The notes under the pieces: model-generated
What the model was told of the DNA's origin: nothing
The model's input: only the letters and a program-made list of their open reading frames with translations
Database searches by the model: none
Position numbers and translations under genes: made by a program
DNA from: Thermodesulfovibrionia bacterium
Lineage (GTDB): Bacteria; Nitrospirota; Thermodesulfovibrionia; UBA6902; BMS3Bbin08
DNA length: 64,000 bases
NCBI GenBank assembly: GCA_030694425.1
Contig: JAUXYI010000063.1
Coordinates: 57,150-121,149, forward strand
Direction: 5' to 3'
Part shown: piece after piece, positions 11,694-48,604 of the stretch
Layout of the letters: every line of letters starts with the position of its first letter
Numbering within the stretch: position 1 is the first letter of the stretch

Positions 11694-12475
11694 ATGAGAA
11701 AGATTTTACTCGCATTCCAGTTTTTGACAATTATTCCTGTAAAGGAGATGAAAGATGTCTCTGAGAAAGAGATAGGGGGCGCTTCTGCTTTCTTTCCTTT
11801 AATAGGCTGGATTCAGGGGGCTTTATTTGTGGTATCAGCGGTTTTATTCTTAAAGATTTTCCCTCCAGAATTGGTAAATGGACTTCTTATCCTTGTAATT
11901 GTTACAACCAGCGGCGGTCTTCACCTTGACGGGCTTGCAGATACCTTTGATGCAGTTGCCTCAAAAGGAGATAGGGAAAAGAAGCTTTCTGTTATGAAAG
12001 ACAGCACAATCGGCCCTGTAGGTGTAATTGCGATAGTTCTGGCATTGCTTCTTAAATTCCTTGCCTTGAATAGTCTTTTTCACTATTCACTATTCACTAT
12101 TCACTATTTCTGATGCCTGTTTTTTCGCGATGGGTAATGGTTACAGCAATTTTTCACGGTAAATCAGCAAGACAGGACGGCATTGGAAAGATATTTATTG
12201 AAAATACAAAATTAAAGGAATTAGTGATAGCGACCCTGTTAGTTATTGGCTGCTGGTTATTAGTTGTTAGCTTCTTATTGTCTTCACTATTCACTATTCA
12301 CTATTCACTGTTTTTAGTGTCTATACCTGTACTTTACATCTTCAGTCTCGTATCAGTTTGGTTCTGCAATAAAAAATTTGGCGGTATGACAGGAGATACA
12401 TTCGGGGCGGTTTCCGAAATTTCAGAGATATTATTTTTGATAATGGCGGTAATATGCTCACAAGACTTTATTTAA
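11679..12475 (+). pseudogene. cobS: adenosylcobinamide-GDP ribazoletransferase (cobalamin synthase), split by a frameshift inside a (CACTATT)x4 tract at 12081-12108
   Basis: ORFs 11679..12113 and 12113..12475 together cover the full CobS homology (GLHLDGLADT...MKDS.IG then SRW...GGMTGD). The frame changes exactly within the heptamer array. A 5-copy or 2-copy array would restore the frame. Confidence 0.7.
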
Positions 12476-13209
12476 TAAGACACGGGGAAACAGAGGGCGG
12501 ACAACTAAACCGCTATAAAGGGCATATAGACGTGCCTCTTTCTGAGAATGGTATTAAGCAGATGGAACAGTTATCAGAATATATACGACAGAACACAGAA
12601 CATAGAACACAGAACATAGATAACCCCCCCATCCCCCCCTTAAATAAGGGGGGGCAAAGGGGGGTTACATCCGTTTACTGTTCTGATTTAAGCCGTGCTC
12701 TAAAAAGCGCTGAGATTATTGCTAAGCCGCATAAATTAAGGCCTATTGTTATGCCTGAGCTGAGAGAGCGTAATTTCGGCATATGGGAAGGCATGACATT
12801 TAATGAGATAAAGGAAAAATATCCGCAGGAATTTGATGCATGGGTGAGTAATCCTTTAAAATTCAGTCCCGTACAGGGAGAGAGCACTATTGAGGTAAGA
12901 GATAGGGTTTTAACTGCCTTAGATAAGATATTAAATAGTTTTAGGATTCAAGGGGTCAAGGAGTCAAGTGAAAAAATAAAAAATGCACTGGAACCCTCGA
13001 ACCCTCAAACCCTCGAACCCTTTTCTGTTGAAAATGTTGCCATCGTCTCCCACGGTGGAGTAAACAGAGTAATATTATGTCATTTCCTTGAAATACCTTT
13101 TGAGAATATATTCGGGATTGAGCAGGACTTTGGAGCGCTTAATATTGTTGAATTTCATGATAATTATCCGGTGGTGAAACTGATTAATTTTACTTGTCAC
13201 CCTGAGTGA
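12454..13209 (+). CDS. cobC: alpha-ribazole phosphatase (histidine phosphatase family)
   Basis: LYLIRHGETE motif. Two in-frame insertions (12590-12665 and 12985-13025). Confidence 0.8.
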   Translation: MLTRLYLIRHGETEGGQLNRYKGHIDVPLSENGIKQMEQLSEYIRQNTEHRTQNIDNPPIPPLNKGGQRGVTSVYCSDLSRALKSAEIIAKPHKLRPIVMPELRERNFGIWEGMTFNEIKEKYPQEFDAWVSNPLKFSPVQGESTIEVRDRVLTALDKILNSFRIQGVKESSEKIKNALEPSNPQTLEPFSVENVAIVSHGGVNRVILCHFLEIPFENIFGIEQDFGALNIVEFHDNYPVVKLINFTCHPE

Positions 13210-13268: not shown

Positions 13269-14903
13269 ATGGAGGCTTTATTGTCTAAGGCATTAATGAT
13301 ACAGGGAACAGGTTCTGGTGCTGGTAAAAGTGTCATTGTCGCGGGCATATGCAGGATATTCAGAGATATGGGAATTAAAGTAGCACCTTTTAAGGCACAG
13401 AATATGGCGCTGAATTCATTCATTACAAAAGAAGGCGGTGAAATAGGCCGGGCACAGGCATTCCAAGCAGAGGCCGCAGGCATTGAACCTTTTAATGACA
13501 TAAATCCGATATTGCTCAAGGCAACAGGAGAATCTGGATGTCAGGTGATTTTAAACGGCAAGGTTTATGGGAATATGACTGCAATTGATTATTACGCTTT
13601 TAAAGATACAGCTTGGAAGGCAGTCACATCTGCTTATGACAAACTTTCACAAAATTACGATGTTATTGTGATTGAAGGTGCTGGCAGTCCCGCAGAAATT
13701 AATCTGCAGAAAGAAGAAATAGTAAATATGAGTGTAGCACGTTATACAGGCGCGCCTGTTATCCTCGTCGGAGATATTGATAAAGGAGGTGTTTTTGCAT
13801 CTTTTTACGGGACCATAGGCCTACTTGATGGCGATGCTGATTACATAAAGGCATTCATTGTGAACAAATTCAGAGGGGATATAGGAATACTCCGCCCCGG
13901 TCTGAGGATGATAGAAAACAAAACAGGCAGGCCTGTTATAGGCGTGATTAATTATTTTGGAGACCTCGGACTCCATGAGGAAGATGCAATACCAATTGAA
14001 CGGCTTATCCCGAAACGTCGGGATGAACCGTTTAAAGCGATAAAGATTGTAGTTTTGAGATTAAGATATATAGCAAACTTCACAGATTTCGACCCTTTCA
14101 TGTATGAGCCTGGGGTTGAACTTAAATACTCATTAAGGGAAGAGGATATTAACAATGCAGACCTTATCATTATCCCTGGCTCAAAGAATACTGTAAGTGA
14201 TTTATTGTTCTTGAGACAAAATGGTATAGAAGAGTGTGTAAAGTTAGCGGTTAATAAAGGAATCCCCCTTATTGGAATTTGCGGTGGATATCAAATGCTC
14301 GGAAAGAAAATTTTTGATCCTTACAACATAGAAAGCAGTGAGAAAGAAGTAGAAGGCATGGGATTTCTTGATATTGTTACAAGCATTGAAAAGACAAAGA
14401 CTACGTATCAGGTAGAGGCAGAACTTATAAATGGTTCAAAATTGTTTAATGTTGTTCAAGATAGTTCAAACGATGGTTTTAAGAATTTAAAAGGCTACGA
14501 GATCCATATGGGAGTAACTACAGGTGATATTGGTTTATTTAGATTATATAGATACCAGAACACAGGACTCAGAGCACAGAGCACAGAAAATCCCCCCTCA
14601 CCCCCCTTTAACAAAGGGGAGCTGGGGGGATTTGAAGTCCTTGACGGATCAATGAAAGGCAATGTCTGGGGGATTTACATACATGGGCTGTTTGACAATG
14701 ATAGTTTCAGGACTGCGCTGCTTAACTCATTGAGATACAGAAAAGGATTACCGCCTATTAAGGGAACAATCAACTATTTTGAACTCAAAGAAAATGCAAT
14801 AGACAAATGGGCAGATGTTTTAAGAAGCAGTGTTGATATATGTTTTATTTTGAGGCTACTGGATATGGAATATTGCAAGGAGCATCTAATCAGAGGTATT
14901 TAA
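13269..14903 (+). CDS. cobQ: cobyric acid synthase
   Basis: N-terminal ATPase plus C-terminal GATase domain. In-frame insertions at about 13990 and 14555-14640. Confidence 0.9.
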   Translation: MEALLSKALMIQGTGSGAGKSVIVAGICRIFRDMGIKVAPFKAQNMALNSFITKEGGEIGRAQAFQAEAAGIEPFNDINPILLKATGESGCQVILNGKVYGNMTAIDYYAFKDTAWKAVTSAYDKLSQNYDVIVIEGAGSPAEINLQKEEIVNMSVARYTGAPVILVGDIDKGGVFASFYGTIGLLDGDADYIKAFIVNKFRGDIGILRPGLRMIENKTGRPVIGVINYFGDLGLHEEDAIPIERLIPKRRDEPFKAIKIVVLRLRYIANFTDFDPFMYEPGVELKYSLREEDINNADLIIIPGSKNTVSDLLFLRQNGIEECVKLAVNKGIPLIGICGGYQMLGKKIFDPYNIESSEKEVEGMGFLDIVTSIEKTKTTYQVEAELINGSKLFNVVQDSSNDGFKNLKGYEIHMGVTTGDIGLFRLYRYQNTGLRAQSTENPPSPPFNKGELGGFEVLDGSMKGNVWGIYIHGLFDNDSFRTALLNSLRYRKGLPPIKGTINYFELKENAIDKWADVLRSSVDICFILRLLDMEYCKEHLIRGI

Positions 14904-16018
14904 TGATAGAATCAGCCACACTTACATTAGCATATTTCTTAGATCTGGCAATAGGCGACCCGAGATGGCTTCCCCATCCCGTAAGGATTACGGGAAAGGC
15001 TATAACAAAAACTGAAAATTTCTTAAGACGCATAATACAGAATACAAAACACAGAACACAGCCTGCCCCGCTTTGCGGCCTGCCCTGCTTCGCCGAGCGA
15101 GGACAGGGAGCAAGGCCGGGGAACATAGATAACCCCCCAACCCCCCCCATAGCAAAGGGGGGTGAGGGGGGATTTGAAAAACTGGCTGGGATTTTCCTTG
15201 TTTTAATTATAGTAGGATCCACTTATGGATTATTTTTTGTTATTAATTTACTTCTCACTTCTCACTTCTCACTTCTCACTTTTATTTTCCTTGTCTATCT
15301 CATCTCCACTACGCTTGCAACGCATGAGCTTCTGAAATCAGCGCATTCAGTGATTAATGCCTTAAAAGCTGACCATATTGATAATGCAAGAAGAAATCTC
15401 AGTTTCATAGTTGGCAGAGATACTACTCAACTCAGCCGAAAAGACGTATTAAAGGCAACAGTTGAAACCCTTGCTGAAAATGCCTCTGATGGTATAATTG
15501 CCCCTCTTTTTTATTTCTCAATCGGCGGTTTGCCTCTTGCGATGGCGTATAAGGCAATAAACACCCTTGATTCAATGGTTGGATATAAAAATGAAAAATA
15601 TAAAGATTTTGGATGGGCATCAGCACGTCTTGATGACTCCGCAAATTATATACCGGCAAGGATAACAGGAATCCTTATTGTTATTTCATCTGCTATCGTA
15701 TCCCGTTCACTGTTCACTGTTCACTGTTCACTGTCTACAATGCTCCGTGATGGTAGAAATCACTTAAGCCCAAATAGCGGAGTTCCCGAGGCAGCAATGG
15801 CAGGCGCACTCGGCATAAGACTTGGAGGATCATCAAGGTATGGAGGAATAATCGTAGATAAACCATATATTGGGGAGAAAAGACAGATGGATAGAACACA
15901 GAGCACAGACGAAATACATTTAGAAGCTTCTATGAAAGCTGTTACGATTATAAAGGTCACATCTTTTCTTGGATTAGTTAGTGCATTGGCGATTTTATAT
16001 TTGAGGAATAATTTATGA
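14903..16018 (+). CDS. cbiB: adenosylcobinamide-phosphate synthase
   Basis: CbiB/CobD membrane-protein pattern. ATG at 14903 overlaps the cobQ stop (TAATG). Three in-frame insertions. Confidence 0.8.
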   Translation: MIESATLTLAYFLDLAIGDPRWLPHPVRITGKAITKTENFLRRIIQNTKHRTQPAPLCGLPCFAERGQGARPGNIDNPPTPPIAKGGEGGFEKLAGIFLVLIIVGSTYGLFFVINLLLTSHFSLLTFIFLVYLISTTLATHELLKSAHSVINALKADHIDNARRNLSFIVGRDTTQLSRKDVLKATVETLAENASDGIIAPLFYFSIGGLPLAMAYKAINTLDSMVGYKNEKYKDFGWASARLDDSANYIPARITGILIVISSAIVSRSLFTVHCSLSTMLRDGRNHLSPNSGVPEAAMAGALGIRLGGSSRYGGIIVDKPYIGEKRQMDRTQSTDEIHLEASMKAVTIIKVTSFLGLVSALAILYLRNNL

Positions 16019-18701: not shown

Positions 18702-19771
18702 TGGATGCAATACTTCTTATAGGACATGGAAGCAGGCTGTCAGAGGCAAACAATGCGCTTAAACAGGTTGCTTCTATGGTGAAAGATTTAGGAAACGTTC
18801 CTTTGGTTGAAACAGCATTTTTACAGTTTGCAAAGCCTGATTTTTTTGAGGCTGTCTCTACATGCGTTTCAAGCGGAGCCAGGAAGATAATTGTACACCC
18901 CTATTTCCTTTATAAAGGGAGGCACTTTGAGGAAGACCTTACTGAAATGGTTGGTAAAGCACGGAAAAGATATTCAGATATTGAGTTTATCCTTACAGAA
19001 CCCCTCGGTGTACACGAAAACATCGCAAAGGTTGTCCTTGAAAGGTCAATGAAAGACATCAAACCAGTGAAAATACTTAAACCGCATGAGATAGAGGAGA
19101 AGAGTTTTGAGATAATCACCAGAGAGATGGGGAAGACAGACTTCAGGGATATTGAGACGCCGATAGTAAAAAGGGTGATACATGCAACGGGAGATTTTGA
19201 CTTTGCCAAAAACATGCGTTTTCACTCTGATGCAGTGGAGGTAGGAATTAAAGCAATAAAAAAGGGAATGGATATTCTGGTGGACGTAAAAATGGTTGAG
19301 GCGGGGATAAACAAGAGATTACTTCAGAAATGGAGAGGGAAAGTCATATGTAAAATTCAGAACACAGAACACAGACTACAGACTACAGATAACCCCCCCA
19401 TCCCACCCTTAAATAAGGGGGGGATGGGGGGGGTTACAGAAAGGGGGGGTGAGGGGGAATTTGAGACCGATACCCAAACGAGAGCGGAACAGGGAATTGA
19501 ATCAGCAGTTAAAGAAAACAATAACATCGGCATTGTTGCAATAGGTAATGCACCTACAGCTCTCTACAGGACAATGAAGTTAATAAGAGATAATGGTTTT
19601 AACCCTGAGCTTGTGGTAGGCGTGCCTGTCGGTTTTGTCAAGGCAGTTGAATCAAAAGAGGTTCTTTTGCATATGGAATATCCTTTTATAACATCACTGG
19701 GAAGAAAGGGTGGAAGTACAGTTGCAGCGGCAATTGTAAATGCATTATTGAAAATAGCGGAAGGGGGGTGA
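18701..19771 (+). CDS. cbiXC: fusion of sirohydrochlorin cobaltochelatase (CbiX small type) with precorrin-8X methylmutase (CbiC)
   Basis: N-terminal 125 aa is CbiX-like (ILLIGHGSR). The remainder is CbiC (HATGDFDF...GNAPTALY). In-frame insertion at 19355-19470. Confidence 0.7.
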   Translation: MDAILLIGHGSRLSEANNALKQVASMVKDLGNVPLVETAFLQFAKPDFFEAVSTCVSSGARKIIVHPYFLYKGRHFEEDLTEMVGKARKRYSDIEFILTEPLGVHENIAKVVLERSMKDIKPVKILKPHEIEEKSFEIITREMGKTDFRDIETPIVKRVIHATGDFDFAKNMRFHSDAVEVGIKAIKKGMDILVDVKMVEAGINKRLLQKWRGKVICKIQNTEHRLQTTDNPPIPPLNKGGMGGVTERGGEGEFETDTQTRAEQGIESAVKENNNIGIVAIGNAPTALYRTMKLIRDNGFNPELVVGVPVGFVKAVESKEVLLHMEYPFITSLGRKGGSTVAAAIVNALLKIAEGG

Positions 19772-22823: not shown

Positions 22824-23788
22824 AAAGAACACAGAACACAGAACACAGACTAAAGACTAAAGATAACCCTCCCATCCCCTCCTTATTTAAGGGGGGGCAA
22901 AGGGGGGTTACCGCAAAGGGAAGTGAGGGGGGATTTAGGAATGCTTTGTCGGTTGAGAAACTCTCATACAAGTACCCTGACGGGACGTCTGCGTTGACTG
23001 ATATTACCTTTAATGTAAGGAAAGGTAAGTTTATCGGACTGCTTGGAGCAAACGGCTCCGGGAAAACAACGCTTCTTCGCGCGATGGATGGACTTATGAA
23101 GAACTTTGAAGGCGGTGTTTATCTGGAAGGGATTGATATAAGAAAGCTCACGCCGAAGCAGATTTACAAAAAGATCGGGCTTGTGTTTCAAAACCCCGAT
23201 GACCAGCTCTTTGCGCCCACTCTCTTTGAGGATGTTGCCTTCGGTCCTTTGAATATGGGTTTTGACGCAGGAGAAGTTAAGAAAAGGGTATTAAATGCCT
23301 TAAATGAAGTTGAGCTTACAGGTCTTGAAAAAAAATCCGTTCACAATCTGAGCTTTGGTCAGAGGAAGCGCGCGTGCATCGCAGGACTTCTTGCGATGGG
23401 ACATGAAATGCTTTTGCTTGATGAACCGACAGCGGGGCTTGACCCGATGGGCGAATACAGGATGATGAAGCTGCTTCAGAAATTGAACAAAGAAAACGGC
23501 GTGACAATTGTCATGGCGACTCACAGCGTGGACCTTGTGCCTCTTTTTCTTGATGAGCTTTACATCCTGAGTAAAGGCAGAATCACAAGAGGCGGCACAC
23601 CGGAGGAGGTGTTTAATGCGCCTGAAGATATGTCAAATGTTAAACTCAGGCTTCCCCACATCGCAGAGCTGATTTATAAACTGAAGCATGAAGATAAACT
23701 GGACTTTGAACGTATTCCCCTCACTATTGGTGAGGCAAGAAGGGAGATCCTGAAAATATATACATACAGAAAAGGTGATGGAAGATGA
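22811..23788 (+). CDS. cbiO: cobalt ECF transporter ATPase
   Basis: Walker A GANGSGKTT, signature LSFGQRKR, Walker B LLLDEP. N-terminal 40 aa derive from a heptamer array plus a C/G hairpin. Confidence 0.85.
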   Translation: MDDLKRTQNTEHRLKTKDNPPIPSLFKGGQRGVTAKGSEGGFRNALSVEKLSYKYPDGTSALTDITFNVRKGKFIGLLGANGSGKTTLLRAMDGLMKNFEGGVYLEGIDIRKLTPKQIYKKIGLVFQNPDDQLFAPTLFEDVAFGPLNMGFDAGEVKKRVLNALNEVELTGLEKKSVHNLSFGQRKRACIAGLLAMGHEMLLLDEPTAGLDPMGEYRMMKLLQKLNKENGVTIVMATHSVDLVPLFLDELYILSKGRITRGGTPEEVFNAPEDMSNVKLRLPHIAELIYKLKHEDKLDFERIPLTIGEARREILKIYTYRKGDGR

Positions 23789-32509: not shown

Positions 32510-32563
32510 TTGTAGCCGCAGACTTTAGTCGGCGTTCTTAAACTGTGATTGACAGTTCAAATA

Positions 32564-32778
32564 GGTATTCCAGAGGAATCTCGTGAAAAACGAGAACTGC
32601 CCCGCAACTGTAAAGGGAGCGAAAACCTAAAAAGGCAGTGAAGAGTAAACAGTGAATAGTTAAGAGTTACAGAATTCAAAAACTTTTAACTTTCAACTGC
32701 TTTTAAGTCACTGTCCCGAAGCGTCGGGACGGGAAGGCAGGTGAGTAGAGAGCCCTAAGTCAGGAGATTCCGAATACC
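32564..32778 (+). promoter_or_regulatory. cobalamin riboswitch with no downstream gene (orphan)
   Basis: P1 GGTATTC...GAATACC. GTGAAAAACGAG, CCCCGCAACTGTAAAGGGAGC, GGGAAGGC, AGTCAGGAGA. Next plus-strand product is only a 6-aa ORF. Confidence 0.6.
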
Positions 32779-32868
32779 TTTTAAAAACCAATACCCTTCG
32801 AGGGAAGAGGAGGCAACATGAGAAATAACACATCGTAAAATTAGTCAATCCAAACGCATAGATAAAGT

Positions 32869-35904: not shown

Positions 35905-36045
35905 TTCCTTTACTCTATAAAACTATACTCCCCAATTCCATAATCCCTTTGTCTTCTTGATTATTTTTACTGCTGTGCTATGGAACTTCTGCGCTCAGAG
36001 ACTTTGGAACTGTTGTCCCTAATGGATTTTGGGGGAGGAGTAGGT
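35905..36045. repeat. toxin-antitoxin island boundary repeat copy 4
   Basis: AACTATACTCCCCAATTCCATAATCCCTTTGTCTTCTTGATTATTTTTACTGCTGTGCTATGGAAC...GGATTTTGGGGGAGGAG. Confidence 0.4.
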
Positions 36046-36569: not shown

Positions 36570-36700
36570 TGCTTTCATACAGCTTCCACGCTATTGTTCT
36601 TTTGGCTAATTGCACTCCTGATTATTTTTACTGCTGTGCTATTGCACTCATGTACTTAGGACCTGTTGAAACTGGCGGGTTTTGTGGGCGGATGTTAAGA
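36570..36700. repeat. toxin-antitoxin island boundary repeat copy 5
   Basis: ...TGATTATTTTTACTGCTGTGCTATTGCACTC...GGCGGGTTTTGTGGGCGGATG. Confidence 0.4.
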
Positions 36701-37494: not shown

Positions 37495-37665
37495 CTTATT
37501 AAAACTATACTGCCATTTTCCTTAAAATTCCTCTGCGAGTCATAGACAGAATCCCTTTGTCTTGTCTGCACTTCTGATTATCTTTACTACTGCGCTATTG
37601 CACTTCTGCGCTTTGGAACTGTTTGAAGCTGGCGGATTGTGGGGCGGATGAAATACGGGAAGTGT
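37495..37665. repeat. toxin-antitoxin island boundary repeat copy 6
   Basis: AACTATACTGCCATT...AGAATCCCTTTGTCTTGTCTGCACTTCTGATTATCTTTACTACTGCGCTATTGCAC...GGCGGATTGTGGGGCGGATG. Confidence 0.4.
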
Positions 37666-39505: not shown

Positions 39506-40255
39506 TTATAGGTTATTTACAACAATATCCTCCAATAAACCTTCAGTCAGCATTTTCAAATTGAGAAGATATTCTATATGATTAAATGTTTCTTCTAACG
39601 GTCTGCTTGTCGATTGCCAACCGATTCCGTCAGTGATCCAGACAAATTTATGCCTATCCTTTGTAAGAAAATCATAAAGAGCCTTGTATTCCCCCGCAGT
39701 AGATTTAAGTTTTGAACCTCCACCGCCATAGTAGTTTGTTTCTATAAGATAAAGTGACTTGCCATTATATACGGCAAAATCGAATCGTCTGCTTGATTTA
39801 TCAACTCCGAGTTTTAGTCCCCACTGTTCTAAAACTTTTTCAGCAGTTGCTTCTTTAATATATTTAAAATCGTGACTGGTACAAATCTCTTTTACAAAAT
39901 TTTCTGTAACTTTTTCCATGGCTGTTCCGCCACGGTTTTTCCGTCCATTGCTATCGAGCCCGACTTCAATTCCTATTGTGTAATCAACAACATTTTTAAT
40001 AGTTTTGTCTTTGAATATTTTCAACAAACCACTTTTTTGAGCAAAACGGACAGCTTTTGAAATTTCGGGATCGGAAAGATTTTTCTTCTCCTCAAATGAA
40101 AAATCTTCATACTTAAGATTCCCCTCAGAAAGATCTGTGAGGATTTTAAACTTATTCTCTCTACATGCAAGAAGGACAGGAATTAATCTCACAATCTGTG
40201 GATGCTTTTTTAAGAGATAGCCAAACTCTTTTTGGATATTTTCTTTACCGATCAA
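39506..40255 (-). CDS. type II restriction endonuclease, DpnII/MboI family (GATC-type predicted)
   Basis: VDYTIGIEVGLDSNGRKNRGG...IETNYYGGGGSKL...FVWITDGIGW matches the DpnII family. The annotated TTG start lacks about 60 aa of family N-terminal homology. That homology continues in frame up to about 40430, with no ATG or GTG, and overlaps the methyltransferase 3' end. Confidence 0.7.
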   Translation of the reverse strand: MIGKENIQKEFGYLLKKHPQIVRLIPVLLACRENKFKILTDLSEGNLKYEDFSFEEKKNLSDPEISKAVRFAQKSGLLKIFKDKTIKNVVDYTIGIEVGLDSNGRKNRGGTAMEKVTENFVKEICTSHDFKYIKEATAEKVLEQWGLKLGVDKSSRRFDFAVYNGKSLYLIETNYYGGGGSKLKSTAGEYKALYDFLTKDRHKFVWITDGIGWQSTSRPLEETFNHIEYLLNLKMLTEGLLEDIVVNNL

Positions 40256-40449
40256 ATAGTTAAGAATATTTAAGTCTACCTCTAAGTCTTTAGTATTACC
40301 AATAACTTTTTTCCAATTTACAAAATAATCCCAATATCTTATAGAATCGTTGAGATTGTTTATGAGGTAAGCAAAAACTTCCGTTGTGTTATTACAGTCG
40401 ATTTTCTTTTTTAATATAGAATAATATTTAATCTGCTTTCGACCTTTTT

Positions 40450-41382
40450 TTAATCTGGTAAGTTGGTTACTTTATTTTCAATTGCTTCTTCCAATCTTTT
40501 CTTAGAAAGCTGAAGATATTCCTCCTCCAACTCAATCCCAACATATTTTCTATTAAGTAGAACTGCTGCTACGCCTGTTGTTGAACTGCCACAAAACGGG
40601 TCTAAAACCAAGTCGCCTTCTTTTGTAGAGGCTTGAATTATTCTTTTTAAAAGCTCTACTGGTTTTTGTGTTGGATGTTTCCCAAACTTTTTTTCCTCGG
40701 CTGGTGGAGCTGAAATTTCCCACACATTGCGCATTTGTTTACCGTTATTCATTTTTTTCATCAATTTATAATCAAAGTAATGTTTGCTCTTTTCATTCTT
40801 TGCTGCCCATAAAACTATCTCTGTGGAATGGGTAAAGTATCTGCATGAAAGATTTGGTGGAGCATTACGTTTATACCAGATGATATCATTGAGAATTTTG
40901 TATCCGAGTTCCTGCATGGCAAAACCAACTAAGTAAATAATGTGTGTTGTTCCAGATACCCAAATAGTGCCGTTAGGTTTTAAAACTCGTTGACAAGCCT
41001 TTAACCATTCAAGAGTAAATTTGTGATTTTCTTCTATGCCTTTTGACTTATCCCATTTTCCTTTATTAACAGACACCATTTTCCCTGCATGGCAAGTAAT
41101 ACCTCCGTTGGAAAGACAATAAGGCGGGTCGGCAAAGATCATGTCAACACTGTTTTCTCTTGCCTGATTAAGTATTTCTACACAGTCTCCTTTGAGGAGT
41201 CTTACCGAATGTTCAGGATTGTCATAATAACGGGTAAATAGTTTTTTCTTCCCATAGATTGCTGTTTCTTCGGAGATATAGAATTCAATAGGATTTACTT
41301 TATAGCTATGGATTAATTCCCTTTTTTTCTTTGCTGATAATACCGGGGACTTATTACTTTTTTTTCTTTTCATTAATTTCAT
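40450..41382 (-). CDS. beta-class DNA methyltransferase (N6-adenine/N4-cytosine; DpnA/MboIB-like)
   Basis: Motif IV DPPY (IFADPPYCLSNGG) precedes motif I (DPFCGSSTTG). Confidence 0.85.
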   Translation of the reverse strand: MKLMKRKKSNKSPVLSAKKKRELIHSYKVNPIEFYISEETAIYGKKKLFTRYYDNPEHSVRLLKGDCVEILNQARENSVDMIFADPPYCLSNGGITCHAGKMVSVNKGKWDKSKGIEENHKFTLEWLKACQRVLKPNGTIWVSGTTHIIYLVGFAMQELGYKILNDIIWYKRNAPPNLSCRYFTHSTEIVLWAAKNEKSKHYFDYKLMKKMNNGKQMRNVWEISAPPAEEKKFGKHPTQKPVELLKRIIQASTKEGDLVLDPFCGSSTTGVAAVLLNRKYVGIELEEEYLQLSKKRLEEAIENKVTNLPD

Positions 41383-41608
41383 TAAATAAATCGCTGATTT
41401 TTACGTTTAATGCCCGTGCTATCTTTGAAATATTCTCAAGGGAGATATTCCTTTCCCCGCGTTCAACACTTCCGATATATGTCCTGTGAAGTCCGCAAAG
41501 GTCAGAGAGCTTTTCTTGAGTCATATTCATGGATTCACGAATAAGACGTATGTTTTTCCCGAATATCTTCTTAATGTCAGACATATTGCTGATCAAATTG
41601 TTGATCAA
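41354..41608 (-). CDS. XRE-family HTH controller (C) protein of the restriction-modification system
   Basis: HTH_3 pattern. Sits immediately upstream of the methyltransferase with an overlap. Confidence 0.65.
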   Translation of the reverse strand: MINNLISNMSDIKKIFGKNIRLIRESMNMTQEKLSDLCGLHRTYIGSVERGERNISLENISKIARALNVKISDLFNEINEKKKK

Positions 41609-42083
41609 TTGATGCCTATAAGTCTACAGACTATAAGTATCATTTTAATCGGGGAATTCTCCACTTTCCTTAAGGGTATAATTTTTGTTCGTTATGCCTG
41701 CAACAGCCTGAATACAAAAGAAAAAAGATACTGGATTCCGCCTCAAGTGCGGAATGACAGGCTTATTATGATTTCACAAGAAAGAACAAATTCTATATCC
41801 CTCTTGCTTACAAAGTCATGGAACGGTTTTTAAAGGTCGGCTTTGTTTTGAGGGAGGACATTATCAAACTCCAGCATAACTGCAAGGCAACAGGTTTCTG
41901 GTCACAGACTCGTAGAGGTAAAAAAGTCTAAACTCTACAATTTTCTTTTAATAATGCATGAACATATTTTTGTATTTCAGAAAGTGCAGTAGCGCAGAAG
42001 AGCGGAAGTAAAATACCCCTCACCCTTACCCTCTCCCGCAAGGGGAGAGGGGTATTAGCTGAAAAACCTGCAAATTCGACAGT

Positions 42084-42122
42084 CTCGTCGCCAGAGAAAC
42101 AGGGAAAGCGGTTTATCTGTAA
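42084..42122. repeat. 35-bp cassette boundary repeat (TCGCCAGAGAA...GTTTATCTGTAA) copy 1
   Basis: Three copies precede or follow each toxin-antitoxin unit in 42.0-43.7 kb. Confidence 0.5.
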
Positions 42123-42145
42123 AATATAACTTCCATATTAGTAAT

Positions 42146-42412
42146 ATGCTAAAATATAAACACTCGGAGGTTATTATGCAAAAAACAATAGATGCAATAT
42201 ATGAAGATGGTGTTTTTAAGCCGACAAAAAAGGTTGCTATACGGGAGCATACTAAATTAAAACTTGTTGTACTTAAAGAGGATAAAGACGCCGGGATTGT
42301 TGCAAAGAAACAGTCCGGGGCGCTTCTTTCGCTCGCTGGTATCTGGGAAAGCGGGGTCATGAATGTAAGTGAAGAACATGACAAATACCTTTACGGAACT
42401 TCCCCAAAATAA
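42146..42412 (+). CDS. antitoxin, AF2212/DUF104-like (AIYEDGVFKP motif)
   Basis: N-terminal motif typical of VapB-type antitoxins of this family. Confidence 0.5.
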   Translation: MLKYKHSEVIMQKTIDAIYEDGVFKPTKKVAIREHTKLKLVVLKEDKDAGIVAKKQSGALLSLAGIWESGVMNVSEEHDKYLYGTSPK

Positions 42413-42600
42413 TTGATTTAATTCTTGTTGACACATCTGCCTATTACGCCATCTTTGATAAGTCTGATAAAAACCACAGTAAAGCAAAAAATTTTCTGAA
42501 AAAGAATGTATTCCCTTTAATTACAACCTTATCGCCAGAGAAGTCACCAAAGCAGTTTATCTGTAAAAAATCGCTTGATTTTTTGAGACAAGTGATATAA
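42409..42600 (+). pseudogene. PIN-domain VapC, lacks canonical start and is 3'-truncated by a boundary repeat
   Basis: IDLILVDTSAYYAIFDKSDKNHSKAKNFL is a PIN N-terminus. The rest is a translation of the 35-bp repeat, then a stop. Confidence 0.45.
42529..42566. repeat. 35-bp cassette boundary repeat copy 2
   Basis: ATCGCCAGAGAAGTCACCAAAGCAGTTTATCTGTAA. Confidence 0.5.
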
Positions 42601-42603
42601 TAT

Positions 42604-43161
42604 TTGATACAAATGTATCAGAAAATTATACAGCTTAAAGTGCTCTCTCTTTTTATGGATAACCCATACGAAAAATACTATCTCAGAGAAGCAGCGAGAC
42701 TCCTTAAAATCAGCCCAATGACACTTAAGCGTTCTCTTGATTTCCTCATAAAAAACAAGCTCATCCTGAAAGATACAGTAAAAAACCAGATTCTCTATTT
42801 CGCCAATGCGCAGAATCCCGCATTCAGATACCTTAAAATTTCCTATAACCTTTCATGGCTTGTGAATAAAAAATTAGTAGAGTTTATGAGGAAAGAAATA
42901 CCAGAGGCAAGCGCTATCGTACTTTATGGAAGTTTTGCAAAAGGCGAAAATGATGGTAATAGCGATATAGATATCCTTATCATCTCTACTGTAAAAAGGA
43001 GCATATCCAATGATGTCTCTGAACTGCTCGGTAAAGATGTTAATCTGTCTTCCTTCAGCCCTGCACAATGGAGCAAGCAAGCTAAAACCAACAGGGCGTT
43101 TTATCTTGACGTTATAACAGAAGGGATTGTTCTTTACGGTACGAGGCCGGTGGCTGAATGA
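42604..43161 (+). CDS. nucleotidyltransferase (MNT-type) with N-terminal wHTH
   Basis: LYGSFAKGENDGNSDIDILII (GS...D.D motif). Confidence 0.7.
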   Translation: MIQMYQKIIQLKVLSLFMDNPYEKYYLREAARLLKISPMTLKRSLDFLIKNKLILKDTVKNQILYFANAQNPAFRYLKISYNLSWLVNKKLVEFMRKEIPEASAIVLYGSFAKGENDGNSDIDILIISTVKRSISNDVSELLGKDVNLSSFSPAQWSKQAKTNRAFYLDVITEGIVLYGTRPVAE

Positions 43162-43592
43162 ATATAAAAGAATGTTTTGAAAAAAGGCTCTTAAGAAAAG
43201 GACGGCCTGATCGACTTAAAAGCGAAAAGGCACTTGAAATAGCAAAGAAAAATGTTGGAAAAGCAGAGCGTCTGCTAAAACATGGTTTTTATTCTGAGGC
43301 GATTATCACAGCCTATACTGCTATGTTTCAGTCTGCAAGGGCTTTGCTTTTTAAAGATGGTATTTTTGAGCGCAGCCATTATTGTGTTGTTGAATACCTT
43401 AAAGAGAATTATGTAAAAAAGTATCTTCTTTCACACGACTATCTTCACTCTATAGATGTTTATAGAACACAACGGCACGAGGCGCTTTATGGTCTTGAGG
43501 AGGTTTCTTACGAAAAGATTGAAGTGGAAGATGCAATTGAAAAAACAAAAAAGTTTATTAAGGCAATTTCAAAGATAATAAGTGAGAAGTAA
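43158..43592 (+). CDS. HEPN domain protein (partner of MNT)
   Basis: 4-nt overlap with the nucleotidyltransferase. HEPN-like helical pattern with the R...H region. Confidence 0.6.
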   Translation: MNIKECFEKRLLRKGRPDRLKSEKALEIAKKNVGKAERLLKHGFYSEAIITAYTAMFQSARALLFKDGIFERSHYCVVEYLKENYVKKYLLSHDYLHSIDVYRTQRHEALYGLEEVSYEKIEVEDAIEKTKKFIKAISKIISEK

Positions 43593-43627
43593 ATCCCTAT
43601 ATCTTAAAAGCTACAAATTCCACAATC

Positions 43628-43665
43628 TTGTCGCCAGAGAAGTCACCAAAGCAGTTTATCTGTAA
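43628..43665. repeat. 35-bp cassette boundary repeat copy 3
   Basis: TTGTCGCCAGAGAAGTCACCAAAGCAGTTTATCTGTAA. Confidence 0.5.
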
Positions 43666-43739
43666 GTCGTAGTTATTTATTTAAAAATCTATTGACGCGG
43701 TGTATTATAAGTGATACACTATTTGAGGAGGTAAACATT

Positions 43740-43964
43740 ATGCCAACAAAAAATCCAAGAATTAATGTTGTTCTGGAAGAACCTATTTATCATAACATTG
43801 AACGCCTTGCAAAGAGGGATGGAGTTTCTTTGTCTCTTAAGGTGCGTGACCTTGTAAGAGAGGCTCTGGAAATCGAGGAGGATATTGTACTGTCGCATTT
43901 CGCTGAAAAGAGGGAAAAAACCTTTGAAAAGAAAAAATCCTTAAAACATGATGAGGTTTGGTAG
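43740..43964 (+). CDS. ribbon-helix-helix (CopG/ParD-like) antitoxin
   Basis: GAGGAGGT ribosome-binding site before the ATG at 43740. The ORF-track start at 43692 lies inside the promoter. Confidence 0.6.
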   Translation: MPTKNPRINVVLEEPIYHNIERLAKRDGVSLSLKVRDLVREALEIEEDIVLSHFAEKREKTFEKKKSLKHDEVW

Positions 43965-44242
43965 ATTTGTCTTTTGAGCTAAGATACCACCCTGATGTTA
44001 AAGCGATTGATATACCACGCCTTAATGTAACCCTGAGAAAACGTATTAAAAACGCAATAGAAACCCGACTTATGACAGCTCCCCACCAATATGGGGAACC
44101 ATTAAGAAAGACACTTAAAGGATACTGGAAACTTAGAGTTGGAGACTATAGGGTTGTTTTTAAGATATCAGGGAATGAAGTCAGAATATACGGTATTATT
44201 AATCGAAAAGATGTATATGAAAAGATATTTAAAAGGTTGTGA
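43958..44242 (+). CDS. relE: RelE/ParE family toxin
   Basis: KLRVGDYRVVFKISGNEVRIYGIINRKDVY. Confidence 0.7.
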   Translation: MVDLSFELRYHPDVKAIDIPRLNVTLRKRIKNAIETRLMTAPHQYGEPLRKTLKGYWKLRVGDYRVVFKISGNEVRIYGIINRKDVYEKIFKRL

Positions 44243-44332
44243 TTACATTAAGCCCTGCAGGAGAATATAAGAAAGAGAGGCAGGTAGTTTAATTCAGTTG
44301 TTTTCAATTGCAAATTGCAGTAAAATTTCCTC

Positions 44333-46486
44333 ATGGAAAAAGTTCCCACAATATGTCCATACTGCGGCTGTGGCTGCGGTCTTTATCTCCATGTTGATAA
44401 AGGCATTATATGCGGTGTCTCTCCAAGCAGAAACCATCCGGTAAGCAAAGGCAGTCTCTGCGTTAAAGGCTGGAACTGCTATGAATTTATCCAGCACCCT
44501 GACAGGCTTACAAAACCACTTATTAGAATAAATTCTAAAGAACATACAACGTCAAAAAAAAATCCCCCCTTACCCCCCTTTAGCAAAGGGGGGCGTGGGG
44601 GGATTAACTCGTCACTCGTTACCCATAACTCATCACTATTCCGTGAGGCCTCATGGGATGAGGCTCTAAGTTATATCGCTAAAAAACTCACAAAGATAAA
44701 AAATACTTCTGGTCCGGATTCTATCGGGGTCCTGAGCTCCGCCAAATGCACGAACGAAGAAAATTACCTGATGATGAAATTTGCAAGGGCAGTATTAGGG
44801 ACAAATAACATTGACCACTGTGCAAGGCTCTGCCATTCATCCACATTAGGCGGCCTTGCAAGCACATTTGGTTCAGGAGCAATGACTAATTCAATAAGCG
44901 AGATAGCAGATGCCAGGGTTATTTTTGTCATAGGTTCAAATACCACTGAACAGCATCCAATGATAGGGATGCACATGCTTGATGCCGTGAACAGAGGTGC
45001 TATATTGATGGTTGCCGACCCCAGAAGGAACATGATTGCAGAGCTTGCGCATATTCACTTGAAGCATAAGAGCGGTACAGATGTGGCGCTGCTTAACAGC
45101 ATAATGAATGTCATTATTAATGAAGGGCTTGTTGATATCGCATTTATAAAAAGAAGAACAGAGAATTTTGACGAGTTTGAGAAGGTTATAAGCAAATATT
45201 CGCCAGACATAGGTGAGGCTATAACAGGTGTTTCAGCAGATGATATAAGAAAGGTTGCGAGGATGTATGCAGCAGAAACCAGGTCTATGCTGTTTTTTTC
45301 AATGGGGATAACACAGCACATTACCGGTGTTGATAATGTTCGTGCTTGTGCCAACCTTGCAATGCTTACTGCGCATGTTGGACATGCTATGACAGGGCTT
45401 AATCCTCTGAGGGGACAGAATAATGTGCAGGGTTCATGCGACATGGGGGCAATTCCAGAGGTATATTCAGGCTATCAGAATGTTAAGGACGCATCAGCAA
45501 GGAAAAAATTTGAGGCCGCGTGGGGAGTAAGCCTTCCCAAAAAGTCAGGACTTACGCTTATAGAAATGCTGAACGCCTCCCGAAGAAACAAGTTAAAGGC
45601 AATGTATATCATGGGCGAAAATCCCGTTATATCAGACCCGGATGTAAAGCACACTATTGAGGCGCTAAAAAAGCTTAATTTTTTAATTGTACAGGATATA
45701 TTTATGACAGAAACTGCTAAATTTGCACATGTTGTTCTTCCCGCGGCAAGTTTTGCCGAGAAGGAAGGGACTTTTACAAATACAGAAAGAAGGGTGCAGA
45801 AGATCAGGAAAGCAATTGAACCTGCCGGCAAAGCAATGCCCGACTGGCAGATAATATGCGAACTCTCAAAGAAGATGGGATATAACATGGATTATAAAGC
45901 GCCTTATGAGGTAATGGAGGAAATAGCGCTTCTTACCCCATCATACAGGGGCATACTGCATCACAGGCTTGATGACGGCTATGGTCTGCAGTGGCCATGC
46001 ACAGATGTTAATCATCCCGGCACCCAGTTTTTGCACAGAAAAAAATTTGCAAGAGGACTTGGCTCATTTATACCTGTTCATTACCTCCCTCCTGACGAGC
46101 AGCCTGATGAAAAATATCCATTTATTCTTACAACCGGAAGGAGTTACTTCCAGTACCATACAGGAACCATGACCAGAAGAACCACAACACTTGAGAGAGA
46201 ACAGCCAGAATGCACTGTGGAGATTAATGCTGAGGATGCAGAGCAGTTTGGCATTAAGAACAGGGCCAAGATAAAGGTTTCAACAAGGAGAGGCAGCATA
46301 GAGGCTGTTGCAGATGTCACTGATAAGATAATTCCGGGCACTATTTTTATCCCTTTTCATTTTCATGAAGCATCAGCGAATGTGCTTACAAATCCTGCCC
46401 TTGACCCTTATGCAAAAATCCCGGAATATAAAGTATGCGCTGCAAAGGTAGAAAGGATACATGAAGAAAGACCTTATATTAAATAA
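44333..46486 (+). CDS. fdhA: formate dehydrogenase alpha subunit (molybdopterin oxidoreductase), Cys-type
   Basis: N-terminal 4Fe-4S motif CPYCGCGCG. HCARLCHSS has Cys at the position of the selenocysteine/cysteine ligand. In-frame C/G hairpin insertion at 44555-44640. Confidence 0.85.
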   Translation: MEKVPTICPYCGCGCGLYLHVDKGIICGVSPSRNHPVSKGSLCVKGWNCYEFIQHPDRLTKPLIRINSKEHTTSKKNPPLPPFSKGGRGGINSSLVTHNSSLFREASWDEALSYIAKKLTKIKNTSGPDSIGVLSSAKCTNEENYLMMKFARAVLGTNNIDHCARLCHSSTLGGLASTFGSGAMTNSISEIADARVIFVIGSNTTEQHPMIGMHMLDAVNRGAILMVADPRRNMIAELAHIHLKHKSGTDVALLNSIMNVIINEGLVDIAFIKRRTENFDEFEKVISKYSPDIGEAITGVSADDIRKVARMYAAETRSMLFFSMGITQHITGVDNVRACANLAMLTAHVGHAMTGLNPLRGQNNVQGSCDMGAIPEVYSGYQNVKDASARKKFEAAWGVSLPKKSGLTLIEMLNASRRNKLKAMYIMGENPVISDPDVKHTIEALKKLNFLIVQDIFMTETAKFAHVVLPAASFAEKEGTFTNTERRVQKIRKAIEPAGKAMPDWQIICELSKKMGYNMDYKAPYEVMEEIALLTPSYRGILHHRLDDGYGLQWPCTDVNHPGTQFLHRKKFARGLGSFIPVHYLPPDEQPDEKYPFILTTGRSYFQYHTGTMTRRTTTLEREQPECTVEINAEDAEQFGIKNRAKIKVSTRRGSIEAVADVTDKIIPGTIFIPFHFHEASANVLTNPALDPYAKIPEYKVCAAKVERIHEERPYIK

Positions 46487-47743: not shown

Positions 47744-48604
47744 ATGACCGGAAGCAATAACAATATATACATGCCTTTTAAGGCAGTAATAGAAGAAGCT
47801 ATTGACATGGGATGTAATGTAAAATTTTTTAAGGTAATCCCAATCCCCCCTCACCCCCCTTTGTCAAAGGGGGGCAGAGGGGGATTTATAGATTATATCC
47901 CCGGTCAGTTCTTTATGGTGTCTCAATGGGGTGCAGGCGAGGCGCCCATATCAGTAACATCTACCAGAGGACTCCAGAGGCATATTGAATTTGCCATAAA
48001 AAAAGTCGGCGCTGTTACAACTGTTCTGCATAAACTTAAGAAAAGCGACACTATATGGCTCAGGGGTCCGTATGGAAATGGATTTAATGCTGACGCAGCA
48101 AAGAAAAGGGATGTTGTTTTTATTGCGGGTGGTATTGGAATAGTTCCTTTACGCTCATTAATTAATTTTATCCAGATGCACAAAAAACAGTATGGAAAGA
48201 TATTTTTGCTCTACGGCGCAAAAAATCCCTCCGAGATACTTTTTAAAGAAGATTTGAAAGCATGGAATAAAAAAGGCATTGAGATTACCCTTACAGTTGA
48301 CGTAAAAGATGAATCATGGAAAGGCAATACAGGCGTTGTCACAGGCCATTTAGACAGGGTAAAGACTGATTTTAAAAACGCCTGCTCATATATCTGCGGC
48401 CCTGACATTATGATAGAAAAAACAATGAAAGAACTCACATCAAGAGGCATGCCCGACAGACAGATTATAACCACCCTTGAGGCACGCATGAAATGCGGCA
48501 TTGGCAAATGCGGACAGTGCTACCACGGCATAGAATACATCTGTACAAACGGACCTGTTTATACATACGAGGAAATAAAAAAGAGAAGGGTTTACGGGCC
48601 GTAA
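47744..48604 (+). CDS. FAD/NAD(P)-binding oxidoreductase with C-terminal 2Fe-2S (HydG/AsrB/PyrK-like)
   Basis: FNR-like fold with the pattern RGPYGNGF...FIAGGIGIVPL. C-terminal CGIGKCGQC. Insertion at 47830-47885. Confidence 0.6.
   Translation: MTGSNNNIYMPFKAVIEEAIDMGCNVKFFKVIPIPPHPPLSKGGRGGFIDYIPGQFFMVSQWGAGEAPISVTSTRGLQRHIEFAIKKVGAVTTVLHKLKKSDTIWLRGPYGNGFNADAAKKRDVVFIAGGIGIVPLRSLINFIQMHKKQYGKIFLLYGAKNPSEILFKEDLKAWNKKGIEITLTVDVKDESWKGNTGVVTGHLDRVKTDFKNACSYICGPDIMIEKTMKELTSRGMPDRQIITTLEARMKCGIGKCGQCYHGIEYICTNGPVYTYEEIKKRRVYGP

Follow-up and report, generated by a model that had tools for sequence, protein, structure and literature searches.

Toxin-antitoxin operons separated by 3'-end stubs of a small PF27350 gene: a probable cassette array in a Thermodesulfovibrionia bacterium

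Integrative elements can accrete in tandem at an attachment (att) site located in the 3' end of a gene, as seen for genomic islands and for the integrase-less CIME-type elements of streptococci. The pdif (XerC/XerD) modules of Acinetobacter plasmids are discrete, often made of toxin-antitoxin (TA) pairs, delimited by 28-bp 11-6-11 imperfect palindromes of alternating orientation, and mobilised by recombinases whose genes lie elsewhere. Variable islands are known to collect TA and defence genes, the movement of single small operons being rarely visible outside integrons. Chromosomal integrons typically contain TA cassettes that carry promoters of their own, and in CALIN no intI lies nearby (PMC4889954). 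Here, we describe a locus from a Thermodesulfovibrionia bacterium, contained in a 64,000-nucleotide stretch of DNA (the window), where TA operons alternate with copies of the 3' end of a small gene, designated X below. We propose, with a probability of about 0.75, that TA cassettes integrate and excise by recombination between these copies.

The array is bordered on its left by a restriction-modification (R-M) system composed of a DpnII-type restriction enzyme, an N6/N4 methyltransferase and an HTH controller protein (39506-41608, minus strand, assigned by Pfam), which is also the left border in the related contigs L005-L007 and L018-L030. All the following features lie on the plus strand. An intact AF2212-like (formerly DUF104) antitoxin gene (42176-42412; PF01954, E = 1.8e-12), whose product is 96-100% identical in L005, L007, L013 and L020, precedes a vapC pseudogene (42412-42528). 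The second module associates an MNT nucleotidyltransferase, the antitoxin of the MNT/HEPN pair (42613-43161; Pfam NTP_transf_2 and Polbeta, and homologues), which has an HTH-like region at its N-terminus, with a HEPN toxin gene (43158-43592; Pfam HEPN, E = 7e-16). The third combines an RHH (CopG-like) antitoxin gene (43740-43964; weak matches to Pfam RHH_5/RHH_1, under the curated cut-off), whose protein is 100% identical in 44 blocks of the contig collection, and a ParE/RelE toxin gene (43958-44242; Pfam ParE_toxin, E = 1e-7). In the locus maps, ParE/RelE, where present, belongs to the final module of the array and always lies beside a formate-dehydrogenase-like (Fdh-like) gene, which starts at 44333 in the window. 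Pfam upheld the module assignments of the earlier note (AF2212-like/DUF104, MNT/HEPN and RHH/RelE), RHH staying below the cut-off. The adjacent small antitoxin and toxin genes with family domains that define type II TA systems are found, the domain pairs being AF2212-like with PIN (intact in relatives only), NTP_transf_2 with HEPN, and RHH with ParE_toxin.

The earlier note had described a 35-bp repeat present three times, at 42084, 42529 and 43628, positions that are 3-4 nt too low. Two exact copies of the 35-mer TCGCCAGAGAAGTCACCAAAGCAGTTTATCTGTAA occur in the window (42532-42566 and 43631-43665; chance expectation, none), and the copy at 42088-42122 differs at 7 of the 35 positions, having the hexamer ACAGGG for GTCACC and one A/G change. 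No further copy with at most 3 mismatches was found in the 64 kb, nor any other copy of the repeat beyond these three. The whole repeat unit is longer than 35 nt, about 55-85 nt, the full units spanning 42063-42122, 42523-42566 and 43582 or 43597 to 43665. As for the genome-wide count that had been suggested, two scans of the GTDB genomes, with exact and relaxed patterns, returned 0 matches, and the same type of scan on metagenomes returned 4 matches, every one at this locus. A single match in a viral contig lay inside a phage glycosyltransferase gene and was dismissed as chance. The repeat does not belong to the 150-bp family of the first island, with which a comparison had been proposed and which is a different sequence family; a search for population variation in that first island retrieved the same strain alone. 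An Rfam scan of 32-45 kb found nothing at the repeats, and its sole find was a cobalamin riboswitch.

Unnoticed in the earlier note, the repeat corresponds to the 3' end of a gene that codes for a protein. Each copy is a stub comprising the last 13-27 codons and the TAA stop of the same gene, X, a rare gene of about 78 aa which is intact in related strains and assigned to Pfam PF27350 ("AF_1447") in their precomputed annotation. The 19 homologues of X are 77-78 aa long with a C-terminus of the form YKFDxLVARE(V/T)GKA(V/F)YL, and used as tblastn queries they match all three copies in the window, where these C-terminal fragments of 13-27 codons are present and no full-length PF27350 match was found. 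Stub R0 (copy 1, 42063-42122) encodes the last 19 codons, KTCKFDSLVARETGKAVYL, followed by TAA; it is 79% identical to residues 59-77 of homologue P0126, its nucleotide sequence aligns without gaps with the 3' terminus of the intact gene in L043, 49 of 57 positions being identical, and its right half is of "type II" (ACAGGG..AAAGCGG). Stub R1 (copy 2, 42523-42566) retains only the last 13 codons, NLIAREVTKAVYL, and TAA, its left part having gone through the vapC deletion described below. Stub R2 (copy 3, 43582-43665) encodes the last 27 codons, VRSKSLYLKSYKFHNLVAREVTKAVYL, before TAA, overlaps the HEPN stop codon, is 63% identical to residues 52-78 of homologue P0131 and matches the intact L043 gene at 49 of 75 nt, again without gaps. 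The frame that ends in TAA is stop-free in 19 variants and its replacements are conservative (mean BLOSUM score -0.11, where the null gives -0.76 +/- 0.35; this value is reached by 23 of 500 shuffles). By counts of synonymous and non-synonymous changes, one other frame could not be told apart from the coding frame; the coding origin of the repeat is settled because the intact gene was found.

The intact X of relatives stands at the end of a restriction or defence operon with a TA module directly downstream. In L037, for example, it ends in WIKDYEFDRLVARKVEDAIYI and a stop codon which the MNT leader abuts. On the left of the first stub in the window, the place occupied in L043 by the body of the small gene is taken, as the comparison of L043 with L011 indicates, by a C-run/G-run hairpin element (42016-42053, repeat family D13, also examined in the alignment of all copies).

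We compared the locus in about 40 metagenome contigs from one groundwater population (probably Nitrospirota), which are about 97% identical in nucleotides in the Fdh body; all are short contigs, in which a 45-70-nt repeat could give chimeric joins, in L013 especially. At least nine arrangements of five TA modules were observed between the R-M system and the Fdh-like gene, several of them recovered from different samples and assemblers. Writing RM for the left border and R for the repeat, a single module follows in RM, R, RHH-ParE and in RM, R, MNT-HEPN, as it does in RM, part of R, MNT-HEPN, R, Fdh. The three modules of the window succeed each other with an intact toxin in RM, R, AF2212-VapC, R, MNT-HEPN, R, RHH-ParE, and the truncated vapC' is fused to a repeat in R, AF2212-vapC'::R, RHH-ParE. 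Two further modules take part in R, DUF433a-DUF5615a, R, RHH-ParE; in DUF433a-DUF5615a, R, MNT-HEPN, R, RHH-ParE; and in MNT-HEPN, R, DUF433b-DUF5615b, R, RHH-ParE. RHH-ParE has a stub on its left only, none being detectable between ParE and Fdh, and its presence or absence therefore requires another event. A fourth, degenerate copy proposed by eye in this interval (GCAGGAGAA-N6-AAAG) was supported neither by nhmmer nor by shuffled local alignment.

Empty and occupied sites can also be compared. L044 and L045 carry X directly against a C-box flank, and in L037 an MNT'-HEPN' module and a 50-nt stub lie between X and this flank, the direct repeats being 90% identical and 1099 nt apart. Similarly, the intact X of L043 is followed by a DUF433a module that is 99.3% identical to that of L011, where it stands behind a stub only. 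Within the repeat, the association between alignment columns is high among the left flank and left half and among the right half and right flank, and falls to about 0.02-0.07 across the stub centre, around the invariant GCCAGAGAA, a distribution that places breakpoints inside the stub. L013 has the structure expected from recombination between copies 2 and 3, and the internal mosaic patches of L003 and L019 are better explained by gene conversion than by one crossover at a fixed point. The suggestion of the earlier note that the repeat borders separately acquired modules and is a recombination site or a scar is thus borne out, since relatives vary in the number and order of modules and have breakpoints in the repeat.

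These observations are consistent with a mechanism acting on TA operons, presumably with promoters of their own, that sit between co-oriented stubs. Recombination between two stubs, or between the 3' end of X and the stub carried by a free circular cassette, would loop modules out or in by Campbell-type excision and integration. Double crossovers with the DNA of other strains would have an equal effect, and either route would yield the strain-to-strain differences seen in the array. Within each stub, the left half would move with the upstream module and the right half with the downstream module. A cassette landing beside an intact X would then supply its last ~9 codons, and the conserved protein sequence still legible in the stubs would be explained in this way. 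The window lacks the body of X, and its three stubs bracket AF2212-vapC', MNT-HEPN and RHH-ParE. The sequences show the identity of the stubs, the polymorphism of the modules, the breakpoints within the stub, a pair of empty and occupied sites and the vapC deletion; the circular intermediates and the enzyme are the parts of this scheme that we infer. We prefer RecA-type homologous recombination acting on 45-70 nt of near-identity, to which we give roughly even odds; a site-specific recombinase encoded at an unlinked position is a possible but clearly less probable enzyme. No recombinase gene (Phage_integrase or other) was found by scanning the ORFs of the window and the related contigs that were fetched, and no circular form of a cassette was seen. 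Both points count against the scheme, as do the mosaic patches of L003 and L019, the lack of a right-hand stub beside RHH-ParE, the possible chimeric joins in short contigs and the finding of the repeat at a single locus.

The strongest competing explanation, which we consider unlikely, is that the TA modules arrived as tandem units of X plus a TA operon and that the internal X genes decayed into 3' stubs, which would be passive relics and not recombination sites. A nearly full-length, frameshifted X pseudogene does exist inside the array of L008 and L014, where it separates DUF5615b from RHH and is matched over 33 residues (E about 1e-12), and three unrelated TA types directly follow an intact X in different genomes. 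Against such decay, L045 and L037 differ by one module and only about 50 nt of X, stubs behind different modules have common left boundaries, and exchange within stubs is shown by the hybrid stubs and by an association that drops sharply in the middle of the stub.

The decay of vapC is a separate matter. The earlier note attributed its truncation to the insertion of copy 2, an account that does not hold, as relatives keep an intact vapC with its own full repeat behind it. The pseudogene preserves the 39 N-terminal codons of the PIN domain, the 3' two-thirds being deleted; it has no Pfam match of its own and is 74% identical over 39 residues to the intact 133-aa PIN protein of L005 and L007 (PIN, E = 1.5e-15 for the intact VapC of relatives). 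The 322-nt deletion is accounted for by 9-nt direct repeats, CAATCTTGT, at positions 1508 and 1830 of L005, one in vapC and the other in the repeat behind it, and its junction is identical in the independent contigs L013 and L020. The absence of an ATG start codon, previously noticed, was confirmed, ATT being present where the relative has ATG. Loss of the start codon, and of 322 nt by slippage between the 9-nt repeats, has left an orphan antitoxin, a clean case of toxin loss with the antitoxin kept. An origin of the repeat as a relic of the PIN gene was rejected: an NLV..E motif is present in the vapC frame, yet only the 9-mer and one codon-sized match are common to both, which we take for chance microhomology.

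We regard two other explanations as very improbable. According to the first, the repeat is a small dispersed mobile element (MITE- or REP-like) inserted independently between operons and without a part in the arrival of the modules. The genome is indeed full of other repeat elements and, by comparison with the more distant L031, the repeat core resembles a clean ~57-nt indel next to TAA; L031, however, retains the first part of the stub (cctccctatctcaaa), which indicates a deletion and not an empty insertion site. Terminal inverted repeats and hairpins are also absent, all copies share one orientation and one locus, and blastn of the repeat against plasmid and phage collections gave no match or chance matches only (E = 0.2). 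In L031, a radical-SAM-like gene precedes MNT, and the resemblance of its 3' end to the repeat was marginal (reached by 3 of 300 shuffles) in AT-rich sequence and was set aside.

According to the second, the repeat serves the operons as a common regulatory sequence, for example an operator, a UP element or a 3' UTR, duplicated with promoters or kept by selection for co-regulation of the TA operons; such a role could still be a secondary one. Each copy does lie upstream of a TA operon and downstream of the preceding toxin gene, and the earlier note had placed a promoter-like site after every copy. This stands for copy 2 (TTGATT-15-TATAAT with an extended -10, 42575-42601, a promoter-like site for MNT) and copy 3 (TTGACG-17-TACACT), but the promoter scan gave no convincing site after copy 1, and the spacing between the end of the repeat and the -35-like hexamer ranges from 8 to 26 nt. 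Moreover, a solo copy precedes the Fdh-like gene in L021-L025, the operons are unrelated, and the repeat represents the end of a coding sequence found whole in other strains. The note had also named a duplicated promoter region of paralogous operons as the finding that would overturn its proposal; the repeat was indeed found at this locus only, yet this alternative fails because the three operons are not paralogous.

Least probable of all are attC sites of a CALIN whose cassettes would be moved by an IntI from elsewhere through folded single-stranded DNA, for although small co-oriented cassettes split by sites of 55-85 nt that resemble each other, promoter-bearing TA cassettes and the lack of a nearby intI match chromosomal integrons and CALIN (PMC4889954), the three copies form no hairpin in DNA or RNA folds of both strands (z-scores -1.2 to +1.25), RNAalifold on 15 variants gives 0 pairs, GTTRRRY and RYYYAAC boxes are absent from both strands of all three copies (regular expression search), the longest perfect inverted repeat is 5 nt and the site is a piece of coding sequence.

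We therefore return to recombination between copies of the 3' end of X, the best reading of which is a new variant of cassette arrays and of tandem site-specific accretion. One natural population here shows the gain, loss and reordering of single TA operons at a defined 55-85-nt site, and since this site is the tail of a small gene, the locus is a testable system for cassette-like traffic without attC or a linked integrase. PF27350, a rare uncharacterised family, is indicated as a landing pad beside restriction systems, a generality for which the basis is a small number of contexts where other genomes have the intact gene (L038), the repeat itself being found at this locus only. More tentatively, the locus may belong to a cassette platform not described before, integron-like in its working and built differently. 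Where a PF27350 gene closes a restriction or defence operon, a recombinase encoded elsewhere might then insert promoter-bearing cassettes, of TA and perhaps other defence genes, precisely at its stop codon, each cassette carrying a replacement C-terminus and the invariant GCCAGAGAA beside the hypervariable hexamer acting as crossover core. In practice, C-terminal stubs of one gene repeated between unrelated operons provide a search rule for more arrays.

Compared with tandem accretion, the likeness is close: the direct repeats flanking each unit reproduce the target gene's 3' end, an intact target gene stands at one end of the array, its last codons are replaced by the incoming unit, and empty and occupied sites differ by one unit and one repeat. 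Intact target genes and both types of allele are found in relatives (occupied in L043 and L037, empty in L044 and L045), the window itself having stubs alone, its target gene being lost. Here, by contrast, the units are single TA operons of 0.45-1.1 kb that carry no genes for an integrase, an excisionase or transfer, the sequence at hand revealed no helper element for them, and the target is a rare 78-aa gene, neither a tRNA nor a housekeeping gene. With integron arrays and CALIN (PMC4889954) the locus shares small co-oriented cassettes with similar short sites between them, an order and content that vary by strain, frequent TA cassettes with their own promoters and, for CALIN, an integrase that is not nearby. 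Its sites differ in being coding-sequence stubs without attC hairpin, R/L boxes or extrahelical bases, with a crossover zone in the middle of the site and not at its 3' edge. Like pdif modules, the units are discrete, often TA pairs, and bounded by short recombination sites, but these are direct repeats of 55-85 nt without dyad symmetry, and GCCAGAGAA and AAAGCAGTT, on either side of the variable hexamer, are not inverted copies of each other as 11-bp pdif arms would be. Finally, fixed-slot exchange systems also place different small modules, according to the strain, in a chromosomal slot between conserved genes, with homologous recombination as the presumed mechanism. In the array described here, unlike those systems, the slot itself contains the homology, which recurs between all modules and thereby allows them to move and be reordered singly.

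The toxin-antitoxin (TA) array lies between a DpnII-type restriction-modification (R-M) system with its controller protein (39506-41608, minus strand) and a molybdopterin oxidoreductase gene (formate-dehydrogenase-like, hereafter Fdh) starting at 44333. Pfam bore out the gene calls of the earlier note for this cluster: an AF2212-like antitoxin (42176-42412), MNT (42613-43161), HEPN (43158-43592) and ParE/RelE (43958-44242), with weak matches under the cut-off for RHH (43740-43964). Three copies of a 35-mer had been reported at the module borders. Two are exact (42532-42566 and 43631-43665, our copies c2 and c3), where none is expected by chance, and the window contains no further match at up to three mismatches; the first (c1, 42088-42122) deviates at 7 of 35 positions, through a central hexamer (ACAGGG vs GTCACC) and one A/G change. 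The unit exceeds 35 nt, as the repeat finder returned a 44-nt family at 42079, 42523 and 43622, and extends leftwards to 42063 in c1 and to about 43582-43597 in c3. No additional copies of this longer repeat were found elsewhere in the window.

The repeat is the 3'-terminal stub of a gene, here called X. Every copy terminates in TAA, and the frame ending there, [SN]YKF[DH]xLVARE[VT][TG]KA[VF]YL before the stop, is stop-free in 19 variants with conservative replacements; synonymous counts for that frame, taken alone, are not decisive. Among the related contigs compared with the window (L numbers), L037, whose MNT is 76% identical, contains a predicted gene, assigned to PF27350 (AF_1447) by precomputed Pfam annotation, that ends in ..WIKDYEFDRLVARKVEDAIYI. 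The MNT leader directly adjoins the stop codon of this gene, whose end recurs as a second copy of 50 nt behind HEPN. The 19 homologues of this gene are mostly 77-78 aa long and share the C-terminus ..ESPWLKNYKFDxLVAREVGKAxYL. With X homologues as tblastn queries, c1 corresponds to residues 59-77 (79% identity), c3 to residues 52-78 (63%) and c2 to residues 66-78, and a 33-residue pseudogene stretch is present in L008 and L014. In an ungapped DNA alignment, 49 of 57 nt of c1 are identical to the end of the intact L043 gene. The intact gene ends, the tblastn matches and this DNA match together identify the repeat as a gene remnant. No intact X was detected in the window by tblastn. Members of the family are rare, with 26 clusters in 1.84 billion representative proteins. 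In five contexts, X closes a restriction or defence operon, and a TA module or the C-box flank comes next; its operon partners include PLDc/DpnI_C, NmeDI_C with MazG-like, and DpnI_C with HATPase_c_3.

The repeat is devoid of secondary structure. DNA and RNA folds of either strand of three copies gave z-scores of -1.2 to +1.25; RNAalifold predicted zero pairs over 15 variants, the copies contain neither attC R boxes nor inverted repeats longer than 5 nt, and Rfam has no match at them.

Around 40 short contigs of the same locus, from groundwater and related metagenomes, were recovered by exact-protein look-up (HEPN, RHH, AF2212 and MNT-family) and one metagenome pattern scan. At the nucleotide level they match the window to 96-99% across the TA modules and to about 97% across the Fdh body, and they therefore represent strains of one species-level population, which the names on the closest homologues suggest to be Nitrospirota/Thermodesulfovibrionales. 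The R-M genes reach only 82-92%, methyltransferase and controller genes being the most diverged part of the locus. The restriction genes adjoining the array also differ by strain: DpnII in the window, beside a palindromic C-box (41612-41645), and DUF6996/6997, PLDc/DpnI_C or NmeDI_C elsewhere (L022, L043, L044). A frameshifted C-terminal DNA methyltransferase fragment (41790-41990, plus strand; ..VGFVLREDIIKLQHNCKATGFW.. / ..LYNFLLIMHEHIFVFQK) separates the R-M system of the window from its first stub, and similar fragments stand beside TA modules in L038 and L045.

A repeat-profile search found one stub before every TA module, on the plus strand each time. Between R-M genes and Fdh, the stub-preceded modules are AF2212-truncated vapC (fused to the next stub), MNT-HEPN and RHH-ParE in the window and L020; L005, L007 and L003 have the same order with an intact vapC, and L018 has RHH-ParE alone. 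MNT-HEPN follows R-M genes and a stub in L006. L013 passes from AF2212-truncated vapC, again fused to a stub, directly to RHH-ParE and Fdh. A DUF433a-DUF5615a module precedes RHH-ParE and Fdh in L011 and L017, and MNT-HEPN then RHH-ParE in L016; DUF433b-DUF5615b lies between MNT-HEPN and RHH-ParE in L002, L008 and L014. In L021-L025 and L030, R-M genes, part of a stub, MNT-HEPN and a stub lead to Fdh without RHH-ParE. A more distant relative (L031-L034, 84-85% nt identity) has MNT-HEPN alone between another gene and Fdh; since L031 retains the first few stub codons after HEPN, this stub-less state reflects deletion and not an uninserted site. Recurrence in independent samples and assemblers argues against assembly chimeras for several arrangements; a 45-70-nt repeat can cause chimeras, and single-contig variants such as L013 are to be treated cautiously. 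Downstream of Fdh, L021 bears a second HEPN/MNT pair between ferredoxin-like and NAD-binding genes (5866-6566), where L031 has a PDDEXK_3 gene; this site appears to be another small insertion hotspot.

Empty and occupied sites were both recovered. In L044 and L045, X is directly followed by the C-box flank; in L037, MNT'-HEPN' and the 50-nt stub stand between X and the same flank. The DUF433a-DUF5615a module follows intact X in L043 and a stub preceded by a GC hairpin in L011 (99.3% nt identity), the homology beginning 62 nt upstream of the X stop codon. When all copies are aligned, the left stub half tracks the upstream module, and the hexamer and right half track the downstream module: type I right halves (GTCACC..AAAGCAG) precede MNT and RHH, and type II (ACAGGG..AAAGCGK) AF2212 and both DUF433 modules. 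Column association is 0.2-0.4 within halves and flanks and drops to 0.02-0.07 over the central part, where the invariant GCCAGAGAA lies. L013 is the product expected of c2 x c3 recombination in a window-type array, and the stubs of L003 and L019 hold internal mosaic patches that look like gene conversion. In one stub copy (L015, 643-727), 16 nt have been inserted precisely at the hypervariable hexamer that lies between GCCAGAGAA and AAAGCAG. Module variation among strains and exchange within stubs support the proposal of the earlier note that modules were acquired one by one at the repeat.

Its suggestion that copy 2 cut vapC is not supported. L005, L007 and L003 encode a complete PIN protein of 133 aa (Pfam PIN, E 1.5e-15) downstream of AF2212; this vapC begins with ATG and is followed, past its stop codon, by a full repeat copy and then MNT-HEPN. 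L005 has the 9-mer CAATCTTGT at 1508, within vapC, and again at 1830, in the repeat that comes after it. A 322-nt deletion from one to the other yields the window fusion, from vapC codon 39 to mid-repeat, so the truncation does not stem from insertion of the repeat. The reported lack of an ATG is correct, the window having ATT at the relative's start codon. The vapC gene decayed, and the antitoxin remained intact.

The simplest account is that co-oriented copies of the X 3' end undergo Campbell-type recombination. Circular cassettes bearing a single copy would insert at any stub or behind the last codons of X, and recombination of two stubs would excise everything between them; double crossovers with DNA of other strains would have an equal effect. 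As crossovers fall mid-stub, a cassette beside intact X would supply its last ~9 codons, which may be why the stubs are conserved at the protein level. No recombinase gene was found in the window or on any fetched contig. The near-identity over 45-70 nt and the mosaic patches favour RecA-type recombination; a site-specific enzyme encoded elsewhere is still conceivable, given that breakpoints are concentrated in one zone and that a hypervariable hexamer adjoins an invariant 9-mer. Only the left side of RHH-ParE is marked by a stub, a fourth copy after ParE being without statistical support, so another event is needed to account for the lack of RHH-ParE in L021-L025.

The comparison proposed earlier, with the 150-bp family of the first island (another TA cluster), reveals a different family, likewise between TA modules: direct repeats of 85-150 nt (35955-36009, 36616-36694, 37567-37650), unrelated in sequence to the stub and without a stable fold. 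The translation DY(F/L)Y(C/Y)CA(I/M).. is shared by one frame of all three copies, and this repeat might also be a gene remnant. Downstream of a cobalamin riboswitch (32513-32788, plus strand, 49.5 bits) lie minus-strand TA genes in place of a regulated gene; the riboswitch may have been orphaned by island arrival. The cob genes of L031 have a TonB-dependent receptor gene behind them. CobS (cobalamin-5-phosphate synthase, 11679-12475) forms two ORFs matching the N- and C-terminal halves of the Pfam model, split exactly at a TTCACTA heptamer run (12079-12118). The Fdh-like ORF (44333-46486) contains a composite repeat (44508-44654) that leaves the frame unbroken, and its protein loop at residues ~70-100 differs in every strain (..KKNPPLPPFSKGGRGGINSSLVTHNSSL.. 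in the window). Further in-frame composite repeats occur in long ORFs (12612-12662, 14579-14629, 15121-15171, 19381-19431, 22855-22905, 47832-47882). In all of these elements, that of the Fdh-like ORF included, tandem heptamers (CAGAACA.., ACTCGTC..) surround a C-run/G-run hairpin; they resemble the in-frame palindromic elements of Rickettsia.

Among known systems, dispersed MITE or REP elements do not apply, because the repeat has a single locus, a single orientation and no terminal repeats, nor do pdif modules, because the sites lack dyad symmetry. The array works like an integron cassette array; its sites do not pass the attC tests, so it is neither an integron nor a CALIN as defined in PMC4889954. 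The closest anatomy is tandem accretion of integrative units at an att site in a gene 3' end, although here the units are single TA operons, recombination genes are lacking, and a rare small gene serves as the target. The array is a new variation on known cassette and accretion systems, in which natural variation exposes the cassette process and gives a simple rule for finding further cases.
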